Below, piece after piece: positions 1,716 to 15,157 of a stretch of DNA of 64,000 nucleotides. Below the pieces are notes generated by a model that was given only the letters and a program-made list of their open reading frames with translations, was not told where the DNA came from and searched no databases. The DNA is from Candidatus Syntropharchaeum sp. (GTDB lineage: Archaea > Halobacteriota > Syntropharchaeia > Syntropharchaeales > Syntropharchaeaceae): the NCBI GenBank assembly GCA_026134025.1, contig JAOQII010000003.1, forward strand, positions 16,166 through 80,165. The letters are read 5' to 3'. Made by a program: the position numbers and the translations under genes. Position 1 is the first letter of the stretch; each line of letters opens with the position of its first letter.

Positions 1716-2911
1716 AATGTGTTTAGCTTCCCTTCTGATACAAGCTTTGTGATATCCGTGATCCGCTCAAGCCATCCGTCAACGACATCCTCTATCGCTG
1801 GTTTGATCTTATCTATACTCACCCCTTTTTCTGGAATGATCTGGGCGTTCGCAACCAATGGGTTATCGATCGGCTGTCCTATCTGTGATAAGATCCTGAC
1901 CGATATCTCCTGAAGTCCATCAACCTTCTCAACGGCATCCCTCGCGATCTGAGTTGAGAGGAGGTTGTAGATCTTTCCAACATGATTTACAGGATTCTTA
2001 CCGGACGTTGCCTCAAGGCTCATCGATCTGTTCGGTGTTATTAGCCCATTTGCACGATTTCCCCTTCCAACCGATCCATCATCACCCATCTCTGCAGAAA
2101 GCCCTGTCACAGTAAGATAAACCGATTCTTTCTCGATATCATCACCGATATTGACAAATACCTCGACATCTCGCGTGGTATAATCTGCGGCGACATCTTT
2201 TGCAAATGCAGCGATCTCATCCCGTATTGTGAGATAATGTGCGATATCATCAACATATCTTGAAACAAATGCGTCCGCGATCGTAACCATAATTTTATCC
2301 CCAGTCCTTAACCCCATCACCTTTATATCCTCGCCGATTACCTTCTCTCGCTTACCAAGATCTGTTATCATCCGCCTCTCGATATTGTAAACAATATTTT
2401 CGGTCTCAGAGAAGGGGGCATGTCCCACGCCAAAGGATGTATCATTTGCACGTGGTATCTCACCCTTCGAACCGAATATCTCGATAAGGTCATATGAGCC
2501 TTGCCCGATCTTGGAATCGATCACCACGTCAGAATTGAGATCAATATTGTGAATATTATCTTCCAGATACGTTCTTGCAGCCTTCAATGCGATAACATCG
2601 ACGGGAACCTCGTCGTCTCCAACTCGCCTTGTTGCTCTCCCATTCAATAGGATGTATATAGGAGCAATGATCTCCCCCCCGCCAAATGCTGGTCTGGATC
2701 TGCCTGCGACGATGGCTACCTCATCTGTATTGTGGTGCAGGATCGTGCCGTACCGTTTATTGTACTCGCTGCACAATTCACGGCTCACAGCCTCAGCGAT
2801 TCCGTCACAGATCGAGTCAGGATGGCCAATGCCTTTTCTCTCAACAAGCTCAATCTCCTGACGTTCGATCGGAAGCTGTTTTATCCCCTCAACCCTTATA
2901 TTTCGTGCCAT
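1712..2911 (-). CDS. mat: Archaeal-type S-adenosylmethionine synthetase
   Basis: N-terminus MARNIRVE...[17 protein letters not shown]; 399 aa, typical of archaeal MAT. Confidence 0.9.
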
Positions 2912-2938
2912 AAAAACTCCTCTCTCATAAAAATCGGT

Positions 2939-3511
2939 CTAACTCCGATACTCATCTTCCAGCGGCTTTGGTGGTAGCGGAAACATGCTTCTGAAGGCCT
3001 CAGGGTTTTTAACCATATCTTTAAGCTGCTCTTTTGTCTCTTCCACAAGAACATCCACGTACATCATCTCAACAAAATTTTGTGCAGCGCCTGCGAGCTC
3101 AAGCAGACCTTTTACATCCTCCTCCACCTCTTCAAAATTGCAGGCAAAGGGACACATTCTTCTCAGGATGTTGAGTAGATCGAGATATCTCCACATCTCC
3201 TCCTTTCGATCTATCGATTCAAGCTGTCGCTGAAAGTGTGATTTGAGTTCTTCGGTGTTCAGTTGCGCTGAAAGTGACATCGGTTTTATCCCATCGACCG
3301 TCGCAAATATTAAGGGTATATTGATAAGATATTCGACATAAGCGTTGTCTATACTCTCTCTTGCGCCTATTGCACACGCAATTCGCTGATCCTCATTTTC
3401 TTCTCCATCCAGTTTCCTGCACATGCTGCAGTACTGCCAGAATCGGTCGATAGACTGGTAAAAAGATATGACACCTTCAAGAGGTAACTCCGCTCTAAGT
3501 TCCATATACAA
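2939..3511 (-). CDS. Hypothetical protein of 190 aa, acidic C-terminus
   Basis: Long ORF with coding-like composition in the operon position between mat and hisH; no recognisable motif. Confidence 0.4.
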   Translation of the reverse strand: MYMELRAELPLEGVISFYQSIDRFWQYCSMCRKLDGEENEDQRIACAIGARESIDNAYVEYLINIPLIFATVDGIKPMSLSAQLNTEELKSHFQRQLESIDRKEEMWRYLDLLNILRRMCPFACNFEEVEEDVKGLLELAGAAQNFVEMMYVDVLVEETKEQLKDMVKNPEAFRSMFPLPPKPLEDEYRS

Positions 3512-3517
3512 GAGGTC

Positions 3518-4189
3518 TCACCCCAGACTTTTAAAGTTTTTCGTGCTGGTGGAACACATCCTGAGAAAATTCTCAAGCATCTTGATCCCGATCTCACCGC
3601 TCTTTTCAGGATGGAACTGTGTGCCAACCACATTGCCATTGGAAGATGTAACAATTGCGGCAAAATCAACGCCATAACGAGACGTTGCGACGGTAAGCTC
3701 ATCCTTCGCTGTCACCGCATAGTAAGAGTGTACAAAATATACATAAGCGCCGTCCATGATCCCATCGAGTATCGGGTGGTCGTGTCGTACCTTAAGTGTA
3801 TTCCAACCCATGTGCGGTATCTTGAGACCCATGTCCTGTGGAAAGCGTACAACCCTACCTGGTATGTAACCAAGACCATCGATCAACCCCCCCTCTTCAC
3901 TGAGGGAGAGGAGCATCTGCATACCGAGACATATCCCGAGTACTGGCTTACCGGCGGCAACCGCATCAGAAAGAATCTCTCTCAAAGGTTCCAGGTTCTT
4001 CATACCCGATTTGAACGCACCAACACCTGGAAGAACGATTCCGTCAGCATCCCTGATAAAGAAAGGATCAGCTGTTATCCTGCAATCAGCACCAACACGC
4101 CGTAACCCTTTGAACGCGCTCTTAAGGTTTCCAACGCCATAATCAAGGATCGCTATTCTTTTAGATTGGCGTGAACTTTGTACCATAGT
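3518..4189 (-). CDS. hisH: Imidazole glycerol phosphate synthase, glutamine amidotransferase subunit HisH
   Basis: IAILDYGVGNLKS, GVGAF, LGICLGMQ (catalytic Cys), HMGWN, YFVHSY. The ORF extends to 4273, but an internal Met at 4189 gives the canonical N-terminus. Confidence 0.85.
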   Translation of the reverse strand, partial: TMVQSSRQSKRIAILDYGVGNLKSAFKGLRRVGADCRITADPFFIRDADGIVLPGVGAFKSGMKNLEPLREILSDAVAAGKPVLGICLGMQMLLSLSEEGGLIDGLGYIPGRVVRFPQDMGLKIPHMGWNTLKVRHDHPILDGIMDGAYVYFVHSYYAVTAKDELTVATSRYGVDFAAIVTSSNGNVVGTQFHPEKSGEIGIKMLENFLRMCSTSTKNFKSLG

Positions 4190-4550
4190 AGATGATGCCC
4201 TTATCCCCATCCTCACCGATTCTTCTGAAGATCGCCCGTACTCGCGTCCCGATATCGATCTCTTCTGGATCACAAACGATCTGGGATGTTAAAGAAGGTC
4301 CTTCATCGAGCTTTACGATCCCAATGATGTACGGTACCTCCCGTTCAAACTCTGTAGAGGTGACGTATACTTCTGTAAACGTCTCAATCTTTCCTTCACC
4401 GGCGAACGTGTACGAGGTCATCTCACTCCTGCGTCTGCAATGTGGGCAGACAACCCTTTTTGGGTAGTAATAATTACCACAGGAGGTACACCTTGAACCT
4501 ATGAGGTTATATCTATTCGGTATTGCCCTCCAGAATCTCGGAACTCCCAT
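4161..4550 (-). CDS. DUF35-type protein with a Zn-ribbon plus OB-fold (acyl-CoA-associated)
   Basis: CTSCGNYYYPKRVVCPHC zinc ribbon followed by an OB-fold segment; its start overlaps the meaB stop by 1 nt. Confidence 0.6.
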   Translation of the reverse strand: MGVPRFWRAIPNRYNLIGSRCTSCGNYYYPKRVVCPHCRRRSEMTSYTFAGEGKIETFTEVYVTSTEFEREVPYIIGIVKLDEGPSLTSQIVCDPEEIDIGTRVRAIFRRIGEDGDKGIIYYGTKFTPI

Positions 4551-5512
4551 TACCTATTCCTCACACGCTTTATCGCATCGACGGCTGCTGTATGAGGGTC
4601 AACTTCCCGTTTCACCATCTTATCGATCAGCGGTTCGTATTCTCCCGCTTCCTTCAGATTATTAAGAACGATATGGACACCTTCCTCACGGATCCAATCC
4701 TTCAGCCCGGCCCTAACTCGATCTCTGATGCGCTTATCAAGGCCTCCTGTTGAGGCAAGGTACTTCATGTGCTCTTCGATCGTATCCACAAGCTCTTTTA
4801 TACCCTCGTTCCTAACCGCCACGGTCTGGAGAATCGGCGGCACCCACTCATCCTCCCCATAGCCTGCAAGATCTATCATCATCTCAAGATCGACAAGAAC
4901 GCGCTCAACACCCTCTCGATCTGCTTTATTAACGACAAATATCGTTCCTATCTCGAGTATTCCAGCTTTTATAGCCTGTATCTCATCGCCCATGCCAGGA
5001 ACGAGAACAACAATAGGCGTATGTGACGAATTTACAATATCAACCTCTGACTGCCCTGCTCCAACTGTCTCAACGATGATAACATCTTTACCAGACGCGT
5101 CGAGGATCGTGATCGCATCGCTTGTAGCTCTTGAGAGACCTCCAAGACTTCCACGCGTGCCCATGCTTCTGATGAAGACTTCCTTATCGGTCGCATGGCT
5201 CTGCATCCTGATTCGATCCCCGAGAAGTGCTCCGCCTGTGAAAGGACTTGTTGGATCAACAGCGATCACACCCACACTTTTCCCACGTTTTCTGTACTCA
5301 CCTGTCATCTTGTTAACAAGCGATGACTTTCCAGAACCGGGTGCACCAGTTATCCCGATGACGTGCGCTTTGCCGGTGTGTGGATATAGCTCACGCATCA
5401 ACTCACGCACTTCGGGATGGTTATTCTCTACCATCGTAATAAGCCTCGCAACCGCCCGTCTATCTCCGTTTAAGACACGTTCTGCGATATCCATCTCTTT
5501 CACACCTGCCAA
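4550..5512 (-). CDS. meaB: Methylmalonyl-CoA mutase-associated GTPase MeaB/ArgK
   Basis: P-loop GITGAPGSGKSS, NKAD motif (VVNKADREG), 320 aa. Confidence 0.85.
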   Translation of the reverse strand: MAGVKEMDIAERVLNGDRRAVARLITMVENNHPEVRELMRELYPHTGKAHVIGITGAPGSGKSSLVNKMTGEYRKRGKSVGVIAVDPTSPFTGGALLGDRIRMQSHATDKEVFIRSMGTRGSLGGLSRATSDAITILDASGKDVIIVETVGAGQSEVDIVNSSHTPIVVLVPGMGDEIQAIKAGILEIGTIFVVNKADREGVERVLVDLEMMIDLAGYGEDEWVPPILQTVAVRNEGIKELVDTIEEHMKYLASTGGLDKRIRDRVRAGLKDWIREEGVHIVLNNLKEAGEYEPLIDKMVKREVDPHTAAVDAIKRVRNR

Positions 5513-5518
5513 TGCCGT

Positions 5519-5923
5519 TTAATCCTTTGGAGCATTATTTACGATGAATTCAACGATTTCTTCCGTGGTAGTTCCGGGTCCAAATATACCTTTAATCCCG
5601 ATCTTCTCAAGCTCAGGGATATCATCTTCAGGTATAATACCTCCAATCGTCACCAAGATATCTTTAGCACCCTCTTCTTTCAGAAGTTCAACAACTCGCG
5701 GGGCGAGTGCCATGTGTGCCCCCGAAAGGATGCTCAAACCTACAACAGAGACATCCTCCTGGATTGCCGCCTCCACGATCTGCTCCGGTGTCTGATGGAG
5801 ACCTGTGTATATCACTTCCATCCCAGCCTCTCTCAGCGACCTTGCAACAACCTTGATACCACGATCGTGACCATCTAATCCTGGTTTTGCGAGTAATACT
5901 CTGACGATTCTATCTGAAGCCAT
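5519..5923 (-). CDS. mcmA2: Methylmalonyl-CoA mutase, B12-binding (small) subunit
   Basis: Cobalamin-binding DxHxxG motif ([12 protein letters not shown]); 134-aa stand-alone B12 domain. Confidence 0.85.
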
Positions 5924-6005: not shown

Positions 6006-6299
6006 ATGACAGAATCATCTTGGTGGAGGAAGATAGTGGTGATAGTCAAGGTGAAACCCCTCGATATATTTCAGGCGATAATCGGGGAAACTGAGGTTAT
6101 ACTTGAGCTTGATGATGGCACAAACATACTCGATCTCCTTAAAGTCTTGAAGGCTAAGTATAAAATATATGAACGTATGTACTTGATGATCATGAAGAAC
6201 GGAAGGCATATCAGGTTTCTGGCTGGTGGAAAGACGCAGCTTGAGAACAATGATATTATAACGATTGCATCTCCATCCCTGGAGGTATATAAAACATGA
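6006..6299 (+). CDS. MoaD/ThiS-like beta-grasp protein lacking a C-terminal Gly-Gly (tentative)
   Basis: VKVK...LLKVL...NGRHIRFLAGGKTQLENNDIITIASP resembles the MoaD/ThiS C-terminal half but ends SLEVYKT; 4-nt overlap (ATGA) with the downstream U32 gene. Confidence 0.35.
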   Translation: MTESSWWRKIVVIVKVKPLDIFQAIIGETEVILELDDGTNILDLLKVLKAKYKIYERMYLMIMKNGRHIRFLAGGKTQLENNDIITIASPSLEVYKT

Positions 6300-7339
6300 G
6301 ATGGCTTTCTGTTGCACATCCAGGGCATATGGAAGCTTTGAAGGAGATCGTTGAGGCAGGAGGATCAAACATATACGAGGTTTACACAGGAGGGTCTCCG
6401 GATTGTATCGGGACTGCTCGAAGTGGGCTTGGAACACCAACAACAGAAGATATTAGAGAACAGGTTGATTACGCCCATGCAAATGGGATAAGAATGAACA
6501 TCGTCCTTAACAGCGCCTGTCTTGGGGGAAGACACCTGACACGGGATGGGCACAATCTCTACAGGTGGTATCTCAAGATCCTGAATGATGTCGGGGTTGA
6601 TGCTGTCACGGTAGCAGAGCCGTTCCTGGTTGAGATGATCGCAAAGGAGTTTCCAGATATCGCAATCACCGTATCATGTATCGCTTTTGTGGCCTCCCCA
6701 CAGAAGGCAATATACTATGAAGAACTTGGAGCAGATACGATCGCACTCGACATAAACATAAATAAGAACTTCCCTGTACTTGAAAATATTCGTGACGCGG
6801 TTGACTGCAAGCTGAAGCTGCTCGTGAATGAGGGTTGTATATTCGATTGTCCCTTCCGTTACGCCCATTTCAACTTATTATCCCATGCGAATGGACCTGA
6901 ACCCCGTCCTCTGCTCAATTATGAGTATTATCAGCAGCGGTGTGCATCGATGAGGGTCGAACACCCTGAACTTCTGATAAGCTCAGGATGGATTCGTCCA
7001 GAGGATGTGAAGGAATATGAGGCGATCGGAATCGACATCTTCAAGATCAGTGGCAGGATTCAGTCTGTAAACTGGATCACAAACTGTGTGAAGGCTTATA
7101 CATCCAGGGAGTATCATGGAAACCTCCTCGAGCTTCTTGACTCAACACGCGAACTCAGGCGTTTATTTTATCTACCAAATGATGCGCTCGAGGGTGCGAT
7201 AGAGAAGTGGAAGACGTGTGATAAAAACTGCTACAGGTGTGGATACTGTAAGAAGTTAAGCAGCGAGATACTCGTATATTCTGAAAGAAGAACGCCAGAT
7301 GAGACGTTGAAGCCCTTGAGTGATTATATGGTGGTTTGA
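6296..7339 (+). CDS. Peptidase U32 family protein (RlhA/TrhP/UbiU-like putative Fe-S enzyme)
   Basis: TIM-barrel-like U32 blocks (GVDAVTVAEP, GADTIALDIN, LKLLVNEGCIFDCPF) and four spaced Cys (VSC...VDC...GCIFDC...RC) that could ligate a 4Fe-4S cluster. Confidence 0.6.
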   Translation: MRWLSVAHPGHMEALKEIVEAGGSNIYEVYTGGSPDCIGTARSGLGTPTTEDIREQVDYAHANGIRMNIVLNSACLGGRHLTRDGHNLYRWYLKILNDVGVDAVTVAEPFLVEMIAKEFPDIAITVSCIAFVASPQKAIYYEELGADTIALDININKNFPVLENIRDAVDCKLKLLVNEGCIFDCPFRYAHFNLLSHANGPEPRPLLNYEYYQQRCASMRVEHPELLISSGWIRPEDVKEYEAIGIDIFKISGRIQSVNWITNCVKAYTSREYHGNLLELLDSTRELRRLFYLPNDALEGAIEKWKTCDKNCYRCGYCKKLSSEILVYSERRTPDETLKPLSDYMVV

Positions 7340-8097
7340 TGATCACCCAGGAACTTCTTGATGCTCGCAGTAAATTAGAGGAGCGGCTTCAGAAGCTTAC
7401 CGGTGGAGCAGGTGTGTTCGCATCTGAGTCTGATATATTTGCGATGTCCTGCGGGTGCATCGGGGCGATCTCGTATATTCAGGGTTTACAGCTCGAGGAT
7501 GTTGAGGTCTATCATGATGAACTCAAGAACCTGATCGAGGATTTTTCTCGTAATCTCGGGATATTCCCTTCGGTCTCTTACGCACAGATGAAGCCTGGAA
7601 AGTTTGATCTTGAGCGGCTTCAGGCGCATGACCTCTGTGATAGCTGTAAAAAGGAGTATGCGGGCTGTGGAGGAAAGCCATGGCCTGATATGATACTATT
7701 TAAGATGGATGAAGGGGGAGAAAGCGCCTTTACAGATATTCTTAGGTTTAGATCCGGCTTGGAGGAGCTTTTGAGAGTGATCTCAAAGCGTCCTGCTTAT
7801 GTGATGCAGTTCAATATCTTCGCGAGGATATGTGGATGTGTTGGGGTTACAGCGGTTGTGAGAGGGATCTTTGGTGACGAGATTCAGAGAAACGCAGAAG
7901 AAATCGTTGAACACCTCACCAGAACGTCAGAAGAAGTTGGAATCGAGCCAACTGTCGTCTACACAACGTTTGTTCATGGTACAGAGGCTGTTGCAGGAAT
8001 CTCAGCCCAAGCGACGTGTAAAGCTTGCAGAACAACGTATGAAGAGTATGAAGTTATACCAAGACCCGATCTTGACATACTCTACTTCGAGAAGTGA
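7336..8097 (+). CDS. Hypothetical protein made of two homologous Cys4 repeats (CGCxG...CxxC)
   Basis: Internal duplication seen directly: repeat 1 FAMSCGCIGA...LGIFPSVSYA...CDSCKKEY; repeat 2 FARICGCVGV...VGIEPTVVYT...CKACRTTYEEY. ATGA overlap with the U32 gene. Confidence 0.5.
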   Translation: MMITQELLDARSKLEERLQKLTGGAGVFASESDIFAMSCGCIGAISYIQGLQLEDVEVYHDELKNLIEDFSRNLGIFPSVSYAQMKPGKFDLERLQAHDLCDSCKKEYAGCGGKPWPDMILFKMDEGGESAFTDILRFRSGLEELLRVISKRPAYVMQFNIFARICGCVGVTAVVRGIFGDEIQRNAEEIVEHLTRTSEEVGIEPTVVYTTFVHGTEAVAGISAQATCKACRTTYEEYEVIPRPDLDILYFEK

Positions 8098-8148
8098 AAG
8101 AGAAAGGTATTTAGTTCATGGCAACAATGAAATACATAAAGAGGTAGT

Positions 8149-10059
8149 ATGACAGAAAAAATTGAAGAGGAACCTGTTATAGAAAATGATGATCTTCTTG
8201 GTGGATGTGAGCTTGAGAGCACCGATGATATAGAAGTGCCCAGGCTTCTCATTGAGCAGGTGATCGGGCAGGAGCATGCGGTAGAGATCATAAAGAAAGC
8301 AGCAATCCAGCGGCGACATGTGATGATGATCGGAACACCCGGTACAGGAAAGTCTATGCTGGCGCGCGCGATGTCTGAGCTTCTGCCAAAAGAGGAGCTC
8401 CAAGACGTGCTTGTCTATCATAACCTTGAGGATGCAAACAACCCAAAGATCAGGGTACTTCCTGCTGGAAAAGGTAAGGAGATCGTGACAATTCAGAAAG
8501 AGGAGGCAAGGCGGCGTGCCCAGGCGAGAAATACATTTCTGATACTCATTATATTCTCGATCGTGATCTATGCAACACTGGTCGGGCAGTTCATCTGGGG
8601 AATTATTGCAGCCGCGATGATCTTCATGGCGCTCAAGTATATCATGCCCCGTGAGGATATGCTCGTTCCAAAGCTGCTCGTATCAAATGCCGGTAAGGAG
8701 ATAGCACCGTTCAATGATGCAACCGGCGCGCATGCTGGAGCACTTCTTGGAGATGTCAGGCATGATCCGTTCCAGTCAGGTGGGCTTGAGACTCCTTCCC
8801 ATGACAGGGTTGAGGCTGGTGCAATCCACAAGTCACATAAGGGCGTACTTTTCATCGACGAGATAAATACACTGAGAATGGAATCCCAGCAGCAGCTTTT
8901 AACAGCTCTTCAGGAGAGGAAGTACGCGATAACAGGTCAATCTGAGCGAAGTTCCGGCGCGATGGTAAAGACAGATCCTGTGCCATGTGATTTTATCATG
9001 GTTGCAGCGGGCAACCTCGACGCGATGGCAGGGATGCACCCCGCACTCCGTTCAAGGATCAAGGGTTACGGGTATGAGATTTATATGCAGGATACGATGG
9101 ATGATACACCAGAGAACCGCCAGAAACTCGTGAGGTTTGTTGCCCAGGAGGTTAAGAAAGATGGTAAGATCCCACCCTTTGATAAAGGTGCTGTAACAGA
9201 GATCATACGGGAGGCAAAGCGCAGGACAGGTCGCAAGAACAAGCTCTCACTGATATTGAGGGATCTTGGTGGTCTTATCAGGGTTGCAGGTGATATCGCA
9301 AAGGCAGATAACGCTGAGATTACAACAGCCGACCACGTGATACGTGCAAAGTCGATGGCAAGATCTGTAGAGCAGCAGCTTGCAGATCAATACCTTGAGC
9401 ATCGGAAGGATTACAAGTACTTCAAGAACGAGGGTGAAGAGATTGGGCGGGTCAATGGTCTTGCTGTAATAGGTGATTCGGGGGTGATGCTCCCGATTCT
9501 CGCAGAGGTGACACCAACCCAGTCGAAGTCAGAAGGACATGTGATCGCAACTGGTCTGCTACAGGACATCGCGAAGGAGGCTGTCCAGAACGTCTCTGCG
9601 ATCATAAAGAAGGTCACAGGAAAGGATATATCAAACAAAGATGTCCATATCCAGTTCATCGGGACGTATGAAGGAGTTGAAGGTGATAGCGCCTCAATAT
9701 CGATCGCAACAGCGGTTGTATCCGCCCTTGAAGAGATACCTGTGGATCAGCGTGTTGCGATGACAGGATCGCTCTCTGTACGGGGTGATGTCCTGCCTGT
9801 TGGCGGGGTCACACACAAGATCGAGGCAGCGGCAAAGGCTGGTGTTTCGACCGTGATAATCCCGAAAGCAAATGCAGAGGATGTCATAATCGAGGAAAGG
9901 TACAGGGATATGGTTGAGATCGTTCCTGTTGCAACGATCAATGAGGTATTTGAGCACAGCCTGATCGGCGGGAAGAAGCAGCGATTCCTCGATAAGCTTA
10001 AAGATTTTGCAACTGTCGGCATCGGGATCATTGATATAGACAAACCGACCGTATCCTGA
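8149..10059 (+). CDS. lonB: Archaeal membrane-bound Lon protease (LonB)
   Basis: AAA+ Walker A GTPGTGKS, inserted TM hairpin ([30 protein letters not shown]), C-terminal Lon protease domain with catalytic Ser/Lys region (GDSAS...). Confidence 0.9.
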
Positions 10060-10065
10060 GTTTGA

Positions 10066-11250
10066 GTGCAAATGTACCTTGAGAAGGGCGAGGAACAAAT
10101 TTTAGCTGGTGAAAAAGGCAGAACTCTCCAGAAGATGATGGAGATCCTCGTAACACTTGGAAAGATCTATGATGCAGAGTACCTGATCCCGATAAAAAGT
10201 GTGCAGATTGCAGGTGTCTCGTACAAGACGATCGGGGATGCGGGGCTTGAATGGATCGAAGATATCGATGCACAGGTTGTTGTCCCATCGATACTCAATC
10301 CAATGGGCATGGATCGGGAAAGATGGCGAGAGATGGGCATAAGCGAGGATTTCTACAGGAAGCAGATCGAGATACTCGATGCGTACAGCAGGATGGGGAT
10401 TAGATTGGAATGCACCTGCACCCCTTACTACCTTGAAGATGGTAGGCCCTGCCTGGGCGACCATCTTGCATGGTCTGAGTCCTCTGCAATCTCGTTTGCA
10501 AATTCGGTGATTGGAGCAAGGACCAATCGAGAGAGTGGGATATCTGCCCTTGCATCGGCACTGCTCGGAAAGACGCCATATTATGGATATCACCTCGATG
10601 AGAACCGGGTTCCAGCAATTGGGATCGAGGTGCCTTTCACACTAACAGGCTCTGACTTCGGGGCGCTTGGATATGTGATTGGAAAGGTTATCGGTGATTG
10701 TGTCCCAATCTTTGAGTTTGCACCCTCGATAAAACCATCAGATGATAACCTCAAGAGCCTTGGTGCTGCACTTGCTGCGAGTGGTGCGGTTGCCCTGTAT
10801 CATGTGAAGGGTAGAACACCCGAAGCAGATCGTTTTGAGATGCCAGAAGAGACGATCATGGTTGAGGAAGGCGAGATTCGTTCTGTCTATGACGGATCGT
10901 CTGAACCCGATCTTGTAGCACTTGGGTGCCCTCATCTCTCGATAGAAGAGCTTGAGCTTGCAGCAGAACTCCTTCGTGGTAGAAAGGTCAAACGAGAGCT
11001 GTGGTTGTGTGTATCGAGGTATCTTAAAGGTAAGCGAGCAGATCTTGTCGGAATGATAGAATCATCCGGGGCAAAAGTCATCTCTGATACCTGCATGATT
11101 GTATCTCCTGCATGTGACAGGTTTGATTGCATTATGACCGACTCTGGGAAGGCGTTGAACTACATACCCACGATGTGTCAGGCAGAAGCGGTCTTTGGGA
11201 GTTTCAGAGATTGTATCGAGGTGGCACTTGGTGAGGCAAGGGACTGTTGA
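10066..11250 (+). CDS. Aconitase X family protein (DUF521), large catalytic subunit; putative phosphomevalonate dehydratase of the archaeal mevalonate pathway
   Basis: About 394 aa with a conserved Cys-rich aconitase-X core (LECTCTPYY, CMIVSPACDRFDC); no adjacent small subunit. Confidence 0.6.
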   Translation: MQMYLEKGEEQILAGEKGRTLQKMMEILVTLGKIYDAEYLIPIKSVQIAGVSYKTIGDAGLEWIEDIDAQVVVPSILNPMGMDRERWREMGISEDFYRKQIEILDAYSRMGIRLECTCTPYYLEDGRPCLGDHLAWSESSAISFANSVIGARTNRESGISALASALLGKTPYYGYHLDENRVPAIGIEVPFTLTGSDFGALGYVIGKVIGDCVPIFEFAPSIKPSDDNLKSLGAALAASGAVALYHVKGRTPEADRFEMPEETIMVEEGEIRSVYDGSSEPDLVALGCPHLSIEELELAAELLRGRKVKRELWLCVSRYLKGKRADLVGMIESSGAKVISDTCMIVSPACDRFDCIMTDSGKALNYIPTMCQAEAVFGSFRDCIEVALGEARDC

Positions 11251-11800
11251 GGATGCGATTTCCACCCTTAAATCAGGTGGGGTCATCGTCTATCCGACAG
11301 AGACAGTCTATGGTCTTGGCGCGAGTATATACAAAAAGGAGGGTATAGAGAGGATCTATGCGATCAAAGGGAGATTATTCTCAAAACCAGTATCCATTGC
11401 TGTTTCGAGTTATGATATGATCGATGAGGTGGCCTATCTCGATGAATCGATGCGTAAGATCATCGAGAAGATCCTGCCAGGACCTGTTACAGTGCTTCTT
11501 AAGAAGAGCCCGGTTGTACCAGATCGTTTGAGTGCAGGTTCAGATCTCATCGGTATCAGATTTCCAGATCACGAAAAAGCGCTTGCGATAATCGAATCCG
11601 TGGGTCCAATCACCTCAACGAGTGCGAATATCTCGGGTAAGAAAGATCCGATTGCTCCTGAGGAGGTTGAGATTGAAGCAGATATGATCGTATATGGTGG
11701 AAGATGCAGGATAGGAGTCTCCTCGACGGTTGTGGATCCTGTTTCAAAGAGAATCCTGCGAAAAGGAGCGGGGTATGAGAGGGTTGCTGATGTATTATAA
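11234..11800 (+). CDS. tsaC: L-threonylcarbamoyladenylate synthase (YrdC/Sua5-type, short form)
   Basis: VIVYPTETVYGLGA signature; probable GTG start at 11234 within the listed ORF 11195..11800; overlaps the acnX end. Confidence 0.75.
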   Translation, partial: RQGTVEDAISTLKSGGVIVYPTETVYGLGASIYKKEGIERIYAIKGRLFSKPVSIAVSSYDMIDEVAYLDESMRKIIEKILPGPVTVLLKKSPVVPDRLSAGSDLIGIRFPDHEKALAIIESVGPITSTSANISGKKDPIAPEEVEIEADMIVYGGRCRIGVSSTVVDPVSKRILRKGAGYERVADVL

Positions 11801-11877
11801 AAAAGTACCGAAACAGGGGATCTATTCCAATCACTTTACAAACGCTTTAATATATCCAGAACCATATTTTATTTAAC

Positions 11878-12753
11878 ATGATCGATGTGCGGGGTCTTCG
11901 TAAGGAGTATGGCACGTTCGTAGCAGTCGATGGTTTGAGTTTTACCGTCGATGAGGGCGAGATATTTGGGATCGTGGGTCCAAACGGGGCTGGAAAGACA
12001 ACGACCCTCAAGATGATTTCAACACTGATAAAGCCCACAGAAGGAAGGATACTCGTTGCAGGTTTTGATACCGGAGCGGATGAGGTTGAGGTTAAGAAAC
12101 GGCTTGGTTTTCTCCCGGAAGAGTCTCCGCTCTACGAGAACATGACGGTTGAAGATTATCTCAGCTTTTTCTCAGAGCTTTATGGGATAGAAAGTAATGA
12201 CGCACATTTAAGGATTGATAAACTCCTTTCAATGCTCAATTTGCCAGATAATGGAAATCGAATAGGTAATTTCTCAAAAGGAATGAAAAGAAAGGTTGTA
12301 ATTGCAAGATCACTCTTAAATGATCCTGAGGTTTTGATATACGATGAACCAACCTCTGGTCTTGATCCGATGACCTCCAAACAGATCATCGACTTTATTC
12401 ATGGTCTTAAGAAGGAGAGAAAGACGGTTATCTTCAGTGCACACAACCTCTATCAGGTCGAAAAGATCTGTGACAGGCTTATAATCATGAAGAACGGTAA
12501 GGCAGTTGCTATCGGAACGGTTGATGAGATCAGGGAAAGGTGGGGAGAGCAGAATTATTTTGTCGAGTTTAAATCCGATAAATTGCCAGAAGGGGTTGTA
12601 TGGGATGAGAACGGACATTTCAAGATAAAGTGCTCAGGAAATCGGGAGATGAATGACGTTACACGGTTTGTGATTGAGAATAGAGGAGAATTGATCAGGA
12701 TCACGCCGCATGAGTCCACGCTTGAGGAGATTTTTATCAGCGTTGTGGAGTGA
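11878..12753 (+). CDS. ABC transporter ATP-binding protein (orphan, with a C-terminal extension of about 70 aa)
   Basis: Walker A GPNGAGKTT, signature FSKGMKRK, Walker B LIYDEPTSGLD; no permease gene adjacent. Confidence 0.8.
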   Translation: MIDVRGLRKEYGTFVAVDGLSFTVDEGEIFGIVGPNGAGKTTTLKMISTLIKPTEGRILVAGFDTGADEVEVKKRLGFLPEESPLYENMTVEDYLSFFSELYGIESNDAHLRIDKLLSMLNLPDNGNRIGNFSKGMKRKVVIARSLLNDPEVLIYDEPTSGLDPMTSKQIIDFIHGLKKERKTVIFSAHNLYQVEKICDRLIIMKNGKAVAIGTVDEIRERWGEQNYFVEFKSDKLPEGVVWDENGHFKIKCSGNREMNDVTRFVIENRGELIRITPHESTLEEIFISVVE

Positions 12754-12831
12754 GAAAATATATTCTTCACGTAGTCAGGGAAGTATGAGCTAAACAAATA
12801 CCTCTTAATTTTTTATACATCCAGAGAAAGC

Positions 12832-12839
12832 ATTAAATA
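12832..12839 (+). promoter_or_regulatory. TATA box (attaaata) about 30 nt upstream of tRNA-Tyr
   Basis: Spacing is consistent with an archaeal promoter; a second AT-rich element (ttttatac) lies about 50 nt upstream. Confidence 0.45.
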
Positions 12840-12865
12840 GAAAATCGTAGATGTTTAGATCATAA

Positions 12866-12986
12866 CCCGCCTTAACTCAGTCTGGTTAGAGTGCGCGGCT
12901 GTAGTAAGATCATGTAACCGCGTGTTACACATTACCGCGACTTTGCAGATACCGCGATGCCCCCGGTTCGAATCCGGGAGGCGGGA
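12866..12986 (+). tRNA. tRNA-Tyr (anticodon GTA) with a 46-nt intron at the canonical 37/38 position (12905..12950)
   Basis: Folded by eye. Acceptor stem CCCGCCT/AGGCGGG with discriminator A. D arm ACTC-AGTCTGGTTA-GAGT. Anticodon stem CGCGG/CCGCG with loop CTGTAG(intron)A. T arm CCCGG-TTCGAAT-CCGGG. No encoded CCA. Confidence 0.85.
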
Positions 12987-12988
12987 TT

Positions 12989-13207
12989 TTAACTTATATT
13001 AGCTTCCTCGATCTCGGTTGCGATCTTGAGGTTGCTCAGATAATCATCGATCGCTTCGATCGCAGAACCTATCCTATCAAATGTAAAGGTGACTGAAATC
13101 TCATGGTCATCGGTTTTTCCTACAATATTTGGTGTATTATCAGGTTCAAGTGATTTTACAGCCGTGATGAACGCTTTATCGAGTATCAACCTCGCTTTTA
13201 GCTTCAT
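12989..13207 (-). CDS. pcc1: KEOPS complex subunit Pcc1-like small protein
   Basis: 72 aa; C-terminal helix AIEAIDDYLSNLKIATEI resembles the conserved Pcc1 helix; 3 nt downstream of the radical SAM gene on the same strand. Confidence 0.45.
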   Translation of the reverse strand: MKLKARLILDKAFITAVKSLEPDNTPNIVGKTDDHEISVTFTFDRIGSAIEAIDDYLSNLKIATEIEEANIS

Positions 13208-13210
13208 TCC

Positions 13211-14710
13211 TCATTCACCAGTATCTATCGCAAACTTCTTCTCAACCTTCTCGCGATGCAGTGTGTTGTAGGTGCAGAACGGGATCACCCTACCATCAGG
13301 GATAGCATAATGTATACCACAGCGCCTGACACGCTCAAGATCGATGTTATAAAGATCCTGGAAGTGCATTGCACCAAGAAAGAGCGTGTTGTCATGAAAC
13401 TCAGCCAGCGCCCTTGTATTTCCCTCTCTGATGACGTTTATAATGAGCTTTGCAACGTCCACCTTGATAGGCGAGCGTTCCTGATCTATAAAGTGTGGAA
13501 TTTTCGTGATAAGATTCTTAACCAGCTTCAGGCGATCACCAAAACCATGAATGGACGTTATTTCTTCCTCAAGTAACTCCATCAGCCCTTCGACATCGAT
13601 GAAGCGCGTGATCGGGATGTATTTACCGTCCTCGATAAAGACGTAGGTTGCGACCCCGCAGTGAGGATGCACCGTAAACTCAACCTGTGGTGTCTCTCTC
13701 CACCGCTCAATTATACGTGAGATCGGGAGAACAAAGGGAACCGGATAGAAATCGTCCTTCGCGATCGCACCAGCGGTCTGCTCCTCGACAAGCCGCATGA
13801 AGTCAGGTATTGTGATCCGCTTTGCATGAACTTCATTGATATCTGTTCTTCCAGCAAATGATATCGGCTGGACGTTTATTCCTCTTATAACATCATGGTT
13901 TTCTGCGGCAAAGTCGAGCATCGGACCGAGCTGATCATCGTTCAAGCCTTTTGCAAGCGTCTGAACGAGAACAACACTTGTGATCCGCGTCTTACGGCAG
14001 TTCTCGATCACCTTTAGCTTCAGAGGGAGTGCGTTATACCCACGAATTTCCTCATATATCTCCTCTTTGAGCCCATCGAACTGGAAATAAAGCGTGTTTA
14101 ATCCTGCATCGCGAATCTTTCTGCAGAACTCAAGATCCTTGGCGAGTTTGACACCGTTTGTTGCAACCTGAATCTGCGAGAAACCCATATCTTTTGCCAT
14201 GCGGATGATCTCTGGTAGCTCCTTTCTCACCGTCGGCTCCCCTCCTGCAAACTGGACAGCCGTACATCCAACCGGCTCCTCTTCCCGCAGCACTTTAAGC
14301 ATCTTCTCGATCTCTTCCATCGTGGGTTCAACGACATAGCCTGCCGCAGCAGCATTTGCGAAGCAGATCGGGCATCGCTGGTTACAGCGGTTTGTAAGAT
14401 CGATATTCGCAAGTATTGTGCCTGTTAGGTGTTCGGCACATAACCCGCAGTCATAGGGACATCCTTCACGCTCGCCAACCATCGGGTTTGATACACCCCT
14501 TCCATCCCGGCCAAAGCGCTTGAACTTATAAAATGAGGCAGGATCTGACCAGTAGACATCTTCAAAGTAGCCGTGTTCTGGACAGGTCTTTTTCATGAGG
14601 ATCTTTCCACCCTCCTCAAGAACGTCCGCTTCGATCACCATCTTACAGACCGGACAAATCGACTTTGTTTTGATACTATCACCAACGCTTCTCCTTCTAT
14701 TTCTACCCAA
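13211..14710 (-). CDS. Radical SAM protein, tetraether lipid synthase (Tes)-like
   Basis: Radical SAM CNQRCPIC (CxxxCxxC). N-terminal Cys cluster (CPVC...CPEHG...CPYDCGLC) could form a rubredoxin-like site. Further C-terminal Cys (CGVATY, CGIHY, FCTYN) could ligate auxiliary clusters. 499 aa. Confidence 0.5.
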   Translation of the reverse strand: MGRNRRRSVGDSIKTKSICPVCKMVIEADVLEEGGKILMKKTCPEHGYFEDVYWSDPASFYKFKRFGRDGRGVSNPMVGEREGCPYDCGLCAEHLTGTILANIDLTNRCNQRCPICFANAAAAGYVVEPTMEEIEKMLKVLREEEPVGCTAVQFAGGEPTVRKELPEIIRMAKDMGFSQIQVATNGVKLAKDLEFCRKIRDAGLNTLYFQFDGLKEEIYEEIRGYNALPLKLKVIENCRKTRITSVVLVQTLAKGLNDDQLGPMLDFAAENHDVIRGINVQPISFAGRTDINEVHAKRITIPDFMRLVEEQTAGAIAKDDFYPVPFVLPISRIIERWRETPQVEFTVHPHCGVATYVFIEDGKYIPITRFIDVEGLMELLEEEITSIHGFGDRLKLVKNLITKIPHFIDQERSPIKVDVAKLIINVIREGNTRALAEFHDNTLFLGAMHFQDLYNIDLERVRRCGIHYAIPDGRVIPFCTYNTLHREKVEKKFAIDTGE

Positions 14711-14794
14711 CCTTAATGGAAGAGGGGAAGATATATATATGTGTCGTTTGATAGGTATAGGTAGGAAGTAAAATTTGCATAGATAGGAACTTAA
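14711..14794. promoter_or_regulatory. Divergent promoter region with ATAGGT/ATAGATAGG direct repeats and atatatat TATA-like elements
   Basis: gATAGGTATAGGTAGGaagtaaaatttgcATAGATAGGaac lies between the radical SAM gene (minus strand) and the HTH-GT2-UbiA operon (plus strand). Confidence 0.35.
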
Positions 14795-15157
14795 ATGGTT
14801 GAGAAAGAGAATGTCCTGGATATTGTAAATAGGCTCTTTGAAAGGATTGGTTTTCCTGATACCGAGTCGAGGATCTACACGCTTCTTCTTGAGCGTAAGC
14901 GGCCATTCTCGATAAGAGAGATCTCCGAGGAACTTGGCCTATCGGTGAGAACAGTGAGGGAGCGGGTTAGAGCGTTATGTAAGAAGCAGCTTCTGAAGCG
15001 GGAGGTTGTGGAGAAGAAGTGGCTTGAGTATAGATACATGGCAAAATCGCCAAAAGAAGTCTGGGCAATAATCAAAAACAAGCTGGAGAATGCGATAGAC
15101 GAGGTTGAGAAGGAGTTCGATCTTGATCAAGATAGCGCGAAGAGGGATGTAAAATGA
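14795..15157 (+). CDS. Winged-helix transcriptional regulator (TrmB/ArsR-like)
   Basis: FSIREISEELGLSVRTVRERVRALCKKQLL helix-turn-helix; first gene of an ATGA-overlapped operon. Confidence 0.6.
   Translation: MVEKENVLDIVNRLFERIGFPDTESRIYTLLLERKRPFSIREISEELGLSVRTVRERVRALCKKQLLKREVVEKKWLEYRYMAKSPKEVWAIIKNKLENAIDEVEKEFDLDQDSAKRDVK

Follow-up and report, generated by a model that had tools for sequence, protein, structure and literature searches.

The open reading frame (ORF) at 7336-8097 on the + strand of a 64,000-nucleotide stretch of Candidatus (Ca.) Syntropharchaeum sp. DNA (contig JAOQII010000003.1, positions 16,166 to 80,165; the whole stretch is referred to here as the window) encodes what is almost certainly a fusion of two paralogous DUF5402 domains that serves as the obligate partner of a U32-family protein, the gene for which lies directly upstream. 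U32-DUF5402 gene pairs are frequently linked to the genes for methyl-coenzyme M reductase (MCR) and for MCR maturation, which is the main context that was missed by an earlier note on this DNA made from its sequence alone. The reading favored here, at a probability of roughly 0.55, is that DUF5402 is a metal-binding accessory subunit of a U32-type, O2-independent enzyme linked to MCR or to the related alkyl-coenzyme M reductase (ACR).

Architecture and conservation of the DUF5402 protein

The earlier note had described an internal tandem duplication of a cysteine-containing module, and the duplication proved highly significant on self-alignment. Residues 1-125 and 126-253 of the protein align with a Smith-Waterman score of 123 (z = 21; BLOSUM62, gap penalties 11/1), compared to 25.9 ± 4.6 for 2000 shuffles, none of which reached 123 (0/2000; maximum 57). 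The three block pairs quoted in that note (FAMSCGCIGA/FARICGCVGV, GIFPSVSYA/GIEPTVVYT, and CDSCKKEY/CKACRTTY) are all found in both the translation and the alignment, and each half does provide four cysteines, namely C39, C41, C101, and C104 in the first and C166, C168, C228, and C231 in the second; C111, a fifth cysteine of the N half, is not conserved. The repeat limits first given, residues 30-113 and 150-235, are too narrow, however, as the full domains span ~120 amino acids (aa), from residue 2 to 124 and from 132 to 251, according to a family hidden Markov model (HMM) built in this analysis.

The module, which that note did not recognize, belongs to Pfam family PF17393 (DUF5402), which matches two stretches of the protein at 169.4 bits (cut-off 25, E = 3.8e-50). 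Domain 1 (N-type; 7339..7707, +; family HMM E = 9.2e-43) carries its CxC motif at nucleotides (nt) 7450-7458 (C39/C41) and its CxxC motif at nt 7636-7647 (C101/C104), while domain 2 (C-type; 7729..8088, +; E = 5.2e-41) carries the corresponding motifs at nt 7831-7839 (C166/C168) and nt 8017-8028 (C228/C231). The ORF as called comprises 253 aa from a TTG codon at 7336, which is followed immediately by an ATG at 7339. Since a 99%-identical database protein from a Ca. Syntropharchaeales metagenome-assembled genome (MAG), P0001 (252 aa), begins at the equivalent ATG, position 7339 is probably the true start.

The two halves of the window protein are only ~24% identical, indicating that the duplication is old rather than recent. 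In a neighbor-joining tree, all N-halves of two-domain proteins form one clade together with single-domain proteins of Syntropharchaeia, and all C-halves, including window domain 2, form a second; mean identities are 34% among N-halves, 33% among C-halves, and 27% between N- and C-halves. One Syntropharchaeia MAG (L010/L011) encodes the halves as adjacent separate genes in the order U32-DUF5402 (119 aa)-DUF5402 (113 aa), the first of which falls into the N clade and the second into the C clade. Because the tree separates the two types in this way, a single old duplication into N- and C-type paralogs, followed by fusion (or by fission in L010), appears to account for the fused form. Two-domain proteins, where named, are all from Syntropharchaeia, and the architecture was seen only in Syntropharchaeia-type sequences. 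Duplication into two types with subsequent fusion implies joint action of the two domains, and a division of labor between them is suggested by a G-x3-(E/D)D-V-E-V motif of the family that is kept in the N-type but not in the C-type. In the MAG with separate halves (L010, 6048-12893), the U32 gene, the two DUF5402 genes, a URO-D-family gene, cdhA (alpha subunit of carbon monoxide dehydrogenase/acetyl-CoA synthase, TIGR00314), and mcrA stand in a row.

DUF5402 is a small family. A HMMER search of 1.84 billion representatives of 50% identity clusters retrieved only 30 proteins, of which ~10 have two domains (230-255 aa) and the rest are single-domain proteins (about 113-133 aa) or fragments; a single-domain profile search yielded 259 clusters at 90% identity, and a word-indexed protein search found three relatives with the full-length protein and six with a mixed alignment. 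Single-repeat homologs, whose existence elsewhere the earlier note had left as a question, are thus the majority form of the family: most members have one domain and about 113-147 aa, commonly about 122-128 aa, from which the window protein departs with its two domains and 253 aa. Named hosts include anaerobic methanotrophic archaea (ANME) of the ANME-1/Methanophagales and ANME-2 groups, Methanosarcinales MAGs, Ca. Methanoperedens, Ca. Syntrophoarchaeum/Syntropharchaeia, Methanolobus zinderi, Methanocaldococcus (MJ1658), Methanopyrus kandleri, and some Methanothermobacter. All credible host names, taken from the source names of the search matches, are methanogens, ANME, or Syntropharchaeia. 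Several entries labeled as MAGs of Desulfobacteria, Desulfuromonadales, Dehalococcoidia, or Nanoarchaeia probably stem from ANME contigs that were wrongly binned with their syntrophic partners. The term "DUF5402" was found in no paper in the literature search, and PDB sequence searches with the window protein and with the family profile returned no match. DUF5402 is a known Pfam family without a described function. The proteins of Methanocaldococcus jannaschii (MJ1658) and M. kandleri resemble the window protein in their CxC…CxxC pattern and in their place directly downstream of a U32 gene, whereas the typical PF17393 member has one domain of ~120 aa rather than two diverged, fused ones.

Across 58 aligned domain units, the four cysteines (CxC…CxxC) are the sole invariant columns, with R11, E15, G40, G43, and G50 being nearly invariant. 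An AlphaFold2 model of the N-domain, computed from a 48-sequence alignment, has a predicted local distance difference test score (pLDDT) of 93.1 and a predicted template modeling score of 0.86; a full-length model from four close sequences was discarded (pLDDT 39.6). In the N-domain model, the order of elements is α1 (3-22), β1 (28-36), β2 (42-49), α2 (53-73), β3 (80-85), β4 (91-99), α3 (102-109), and β5 (119-124), with the CxC motif in the β1-β2 hairpin loop and the CxxC motif at the N-terminus of α3. DUF5402 is therefore predicted to be a compact alpha/beta fold of ~120 aa with one four-Cys site per domain. The earlier note had not recognized this fold either, and a Foldseek search of the PDB with the N-domain model returned nothing at E ≤ 0.001.

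Binding of a metal or of an iron-sulfur (Fe-S) cluster is plausible because the four cysteines are invariant in all 58 units and are placed in a hairpin loop and at a helix N-terminus. Four-Cys sites of this topology are also typical of zinc, and DUF5402 could accordingly be a structural adaptor in which the four cysteines hold Zn, stabilizing the U32 protein or docking it, with no redox role. Such an adaptor would agree with the UniProt name of the M. kandleri member ("Predicted metal-binding protein"), with the presence of two four-Cys sets in the U32 protein itself, which make further redox centers not obviously necessary, and with the use of a non-redox accessory protein, UbiT, by UbiUV. 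In contrast to rubredoxins and zinc ribbons, however, whose ribbon fold carries a pair of CxxC knuckles, DUF5402 combines the unusual CxC spacing with a CxxC on an alpha-beta-beta-alpha-beta-beta-alpha-beta domain, and Foldseek matched no zinc-finger fold. A purely structural zinc site is thus possible, but we consider it somewhat unlikely.

The U32 partner and its genomic linkage to MCR

The upstream gene (6296..7339, +) encodes a 347-aa U32-family protein (PF01136, 54.7 bits; cut-off 22.4). It belongs to a separate subfamily found in archaea and falls far under the equivalog cut-offs for UbiU (NF047963, 32.3 bits against 440) and TrhP (NF011996, 25.1 against 534). In an alignment of the subfamily that includes MJ1657 and the M. 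kandleri protein, C75, C181, C185, and C216 are invariant and C171 is nearly so. The core spacing, C171-x9-C181-x3-C185-x30-C216, is similar to that of the UbiV type without being identical to the published U32 [4Fe-4S] motifs (CX6CX15CX3/4C or the UbiV-type CXnCX12CX3C). A further C-terminal motif, CX3CX2CX2C (C308, C312, C315, and C318; 7217-7249, +), is likewise conserved in the subfamily, MJ1657 and M. kandleri included, suggesting a second metal center that has not been described for UbiU, UbiV, or TrhP. With two sets of its own in the U32 protein, the complex encoded in the window may contain up to four four-Cys sites.

The partnership with U32 assumed in the earlier note extends well beyond the window. 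A metagenome scan with an alignment of the U32 partner alone retrieved at least 525 relatives, and in about 60 of the best 80 loci, which were inspected, a DUF5402 ORF lies directly downstream of the U32 gene, nearly always in single-domain form. The same pairing is found in M. jannaschii (MJ1657/MJ1658), M. kandleri, and Methanothermobacter. At the window junction, the two genes overlap in TGATG/TTGA, and the coding regions of U32 and DUF5402 overlap at 63 of 75 junctions (median -7 nt). Single Syntropharchaeia MAGs hold several paralogous pairs, in line with the several alkyl-coenzyme M reductases of this group. Judged by the names of the matched sequences, the pair appears to be limited to archaea that bear MCR or ACR.

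MCR-related neighbors (mcrABG, mcrC, atwA, mgmA-type genes, or mtrH) were identified in 13 of the 23 non-redundant loci, counted after de-replication and at a length of at least 6 kb, while the chance of such neighbors in a random 16-kb methanogen stretch would be a few percent by a rough, uncomputed estimate. The gene orders behind this count differ between lineages. In L002-L005, the series mcrB-mcrG-x-x-mcrA-x, in which the last x is a gene for 205 aa, directly precedes U32 and a two-domain DUF5402 gene. L009 has the order mcrBDCGA-U32-DUF5402-MgmA, with a bona fide MgmA (TIGR04014, 632 bits); in L012, one U32-DUF5402 pair stands before mcrB-mcrG and another is convergent on an MgmA gene; and in L010 the pair is three genes away from mcrA. 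A Methanoperedens-type locus (L024) has the pair near mcrBDG, some loci have it immediately downstream of mtrH, and in ANME-1 the order U32-U32-DUF5402 is followed by component A2/atwA (TIGR03269, 634 bits) and McrC (TIGR03264).

Several of these loci contain additional conserved genes. In the divergent mcr/acr set of L002, a Syntropharchaeia MAG, two that encode 141 and 383 aa lie between mcrG and mcrA (2861-4450), and the 205-aa gene lies between mcrA and U32 (6338-6955); none of the three has a family match, and all three recur in L086. The ANME-1-type loci L040, L045, L056, and L058 (~8000-15000) share two tandem U32 paralogs, one DUF5402 gene, A2 once or twice, and McrC, followed by a conserved 188-aa protein without a family match and a 306-aa class-I S-adenosylmethionine (SAM) methyltransferase; this cluster looks like a gene set for MCR maturation and activation. 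In M. kandleri (L096, 1-8360; AE009439), the pair directly follows, on the same strand, a run of hmd/hcg genes for HcgF, Hmd, HcgC, a NIF3-family protein (PF01784), a radical-SAM protein, a Fibrillarin_2-family protein (PF10113), and HcgB. This adjacency may be coincidental, because the pair loci of ANME-1 and Syntrophoarchaeum are without such genes.

The Cys-Gly-Cys of acetyl-CoA synthase binds Ni, and the C-G-C-x-G of DUF5402 is nearly invariant. Together with the linkage of the pair to mcrC and atwA, genes of MCR activation, this raises the idea that DUF5402 binds nickel through Cys-Gly-Cys, or handles a cofactor, for F430 or MCR assembly. The middle residue of the CxC is not strictly Gly, however: MJ1658 has Ser at this position, and two N-halves have Asn or Arg. 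Moreover, the strict partner of DUF5402 is a U32 enzyme and not the product of a cfb or mcrD gene, and neither sequence nor structure searches revealed similarity to known Ni chaperones. A nickel-handling role is accordingly very improbable.

A candidate role in MCR modification

Hydroxylation without O2 depends on the U32 Fe-S proteins UbiU/UbiV, TrhP, and RlhA. In the case of UbiU/UbiV, the oxygen has been shown to come from prephenate, a donor that is also implicated in the TrhP and RlhA reactions, and U32 clusters have been proposed to pass two substrate electrons to an acceptor (PMC10990095, PMC6747719). In the mechanism proposed here, the translationally coupled U32 and DUF5402 proteins probably form a complex, in which the DUF5402 cysteine sites would hold metal centers (Fe-S or Fe/Zn). 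These centers might extend the electron path that takes two electrons off the substrate, or might anchor the U32 protein to the substrate. The working unit would probably be a DUF5402 dimer: a homodimer for single-domain proteins, a heterodimer where two genes are present as in L010, and a covalent pseudo-dimer in the window.

The most likely substrate of such a complex would be the alpha subunit of methyl- or alkyl-coenzyme M reductase (McrA/AcrA), given the linkage to mcr genes and the apparent restriction to MCR-bearing archaea, and the most likely reaction would be hydroxylation of an MCR tryptophan. Hydroxytryptophan has been observed in MCR structures as the 7-hydroxy form in ANME-1 and the 6-hydroxy form in ANME-2c and ANME-2d (PMC12413448), as well as in the MCR of Methanotorris formicicus, and no installing enzyme is known (PMC7581889). 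The ANME groups whose MCR carries it, or their close relatives, have the pair, as does Methanocaldococcus, to which M. formicicus is related. This match between hosts of the modification and hosts of the pair, in combination with the lack of an assigned enzyme, also points to McrA/AcrA. Overall, an MCR/ACR-related role of U32-DUF5402 is somewhat better than an even bet, while the specific proposal of an O2-independent, prephenate-type hydroxylase that makes 6- or 7-hydroxytryptophan in MCR/ACR is tentative and clearly the less probable of the two. Two other MCR-related reactions were set aside: formation of didehydroaspartate, since ANME-1 has the pair and its MCR has not been reported with that modification, and synthesis of methylthio-F430, since ANME-2 has the pair and uses classic F430.

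A number of observations weigh against an MCR-linked role or limit the case for it. A tblastn search for mcr across the window found none, no mcr gene lies beside the orthologous cassette of Ca. Syntrophoarchaeum butanivorans, and the pair does not adjoin mcr genes in the M. jannaschii, M. kandleri, and Methanothermobacter loci; an ABC ATPase near MJ1658 was not counted as A2 linkage, since it scores 309 bits against a cut-off of 517. A two-domain DUF5402 protein (P0005; L014, 6494-7207) is encoded without an adjacent U32 gene. A single metal site per domain is plausible from the modeled order of secondary-structure elements rather than from measured distances. We know of no report of hydroxytryptophan in the MCR of M. 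kandleri, Methanothermobacter tenebrarum, or Methanolobus zinderi, all of which carry the pair, and the comparison of pair with modification covers organisms whose MCR carries hydroxytryptophan; the MCRs of M. marburgensis, M. barkeri, and M. shengliensis are without it. The modified tryptophan itself (W429 of 5N28) lies inside a GWY stretch common to the three McrA sequences aligned, and its conservation is uninformative for that reason.

One neighbor of the P0005 gene, transcribed from the other strand, encodes a small 2x[4Fe-4S] ferredoxin, and the other neighbor is eIF5A.

In a rival reading, the pair would have nothing to do with MCR and would instead hydroxylate a small-molecule cofactor or, like TrhP and RlhA, RNA, the linkage to mcr being a product of operon shuffling among methanogenesis genes. 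This reading is favored by the lack of mcr linkage in the window, in M. jannaschii, in M. kandleri (where the pair follows hcg cofactor genes), and in Methanothermobacter, and by the range of U32 substrates reported to date, which comprises only tRNA, rRNA, and ubiquinone precursors. However, the frequency of MCR-related neighbors is far above the few percent guessed for chance, and the linkage recurs across lineages despite the differing gene orders. In addition, Syntropharchaeia MAGs with several acr sets hold several paralogous pairs, and a patchy set of MCR-bearing taxa is not the distribution that an RNA modification of general use would have. Among cofactors, F430 variants fit poorly, given the classic F430 of pair-bearing ANME-2. 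A function unrelated to MCR is therefore unlikely, and an accessory role for DUF5402 in an MCR/ACR-linked U32 enzyme is preferred.

Other window genes, related systems, and significance

In the window, the U32 and DUF5402 genes are the second and third of a three-gene cassette, the first of which (6006..6299, +) encodes a 97-aa ThiS/MoaD-like beta-grasp protein (PF02597, 29.7 bits against a cut-off of 22.5; under the TIGR01687 cut-off, 31.7 against 49.5). An ATGA overlap couples its stop codon to the U32 start. The protein has no cysteine and no C-terminal Gly-Gly, ending in …ITIASPSLEVYKT; its ortholog in Ca. S. butanivorans, where the trio of ThiS-like, U32, and two-domain DUF5402 genes is repeated, ends in …ITIASPSPEVYKT. 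Its homologs came solely from the window, L015, L001, and L016, and since it is confined to this one clade, the ThiS-like gene is considered to lie outside the general U32-DUF5402 system. ThiS-dependent sulfur transfer was set aside for a beta-grasp protein that lacks Gly-Gly and is restricted to a single clade. Upstream of the cassette, on the - strand (3518-5923), are genes for a class-I glutamine amidotransferase, a ChsH2-type zinc-ribbon/OB-fold protein, MeaB, and a stand-alone B12-binding domain of the methylmalonyl-CoA-mutase small-subunit type. The cassette is followed on the + strand by genes for an archaeal LonB (8149-10059) and aconitase X (10066-11250).

A close parallel among known systems is UbiU-UbiV-UbiT, the O2-independent ubiquinone hydroxylase of Proteobacteria, in which a U32 Fe-S enzyme, also with cysteine sets that are conserved, is likewise encoded alongside a small accessory protein; the tandem U32 paralogs of ANME-1 resemble UbiU plus UbiV. 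The accessory proteins differ, UbiT being an SCP2 lipid binder and DUF5402 a four-Cys alpha/beta domain, as do the U32 proteins, with the window protein scoring 32 bits against the UbiU cut-off of 440 and having an extra C-terminal CX3CX2CX2C; its hosts, furthermore, are archaea without ubiquinone synthesis. TrhP and RlhA also have the U32 domain, and they hydroxylate an aromatic ring of a macromolecule in a prephenate-linked reaction that needs no O2, as is proposed here for the pair. They have no DUF5402 partner, the window U32 protein scores 25 bits against the TrhP cut-off of 534, and the gene context of the archaeal pair is MCR-related, not translation-related. MgmA, Mmp10, McmA, and YcaO-TfuA are similar to the pair in being encoded near mcr with a patchy, lineage-dependent distribution, and MgmA is its immediate neighbor in two loci. 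None of them is related in sequence to U32-DUF5402 or hydroxylates its target, and the link of the pair to MCR is a genomic one.

MCR makes and consumes nearly all biological methane. Several active-site modifications of MCR without a known installing enzyme, hydroxytryptophan among them, limit heterologous production of ANME- and alkane-type enzymes, and this analysis provides a testable candidate in the form of a conserved, translationally coupled gene pair, which is also present in the cultured Methanocaldococcus and Methanolobus zinderi. Should the link to MCR prove wrong, it would still stand that a U32 subfamily has an obligate four-Cys partner with an unmatched fold, and that the fused form records a heterodimer-to-fusion transition. 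If the proposal is correct, prephenate-dependent anaerobic hydroxylation would extend from RNA and quinones to proteins, with the first U32 enzyme acting on a protein; DUF5402 would gain a function as a metal-binding subunit with a new fold; and each paralogous pair of Syntropharchaeia, the fused form included, would serve one alkyl-coenzyme M reductase. While the domain duplication by itself is of moderate interest, its gene context makes DUF5402 a useful lead on an unsolved problem of methane biochemistry.

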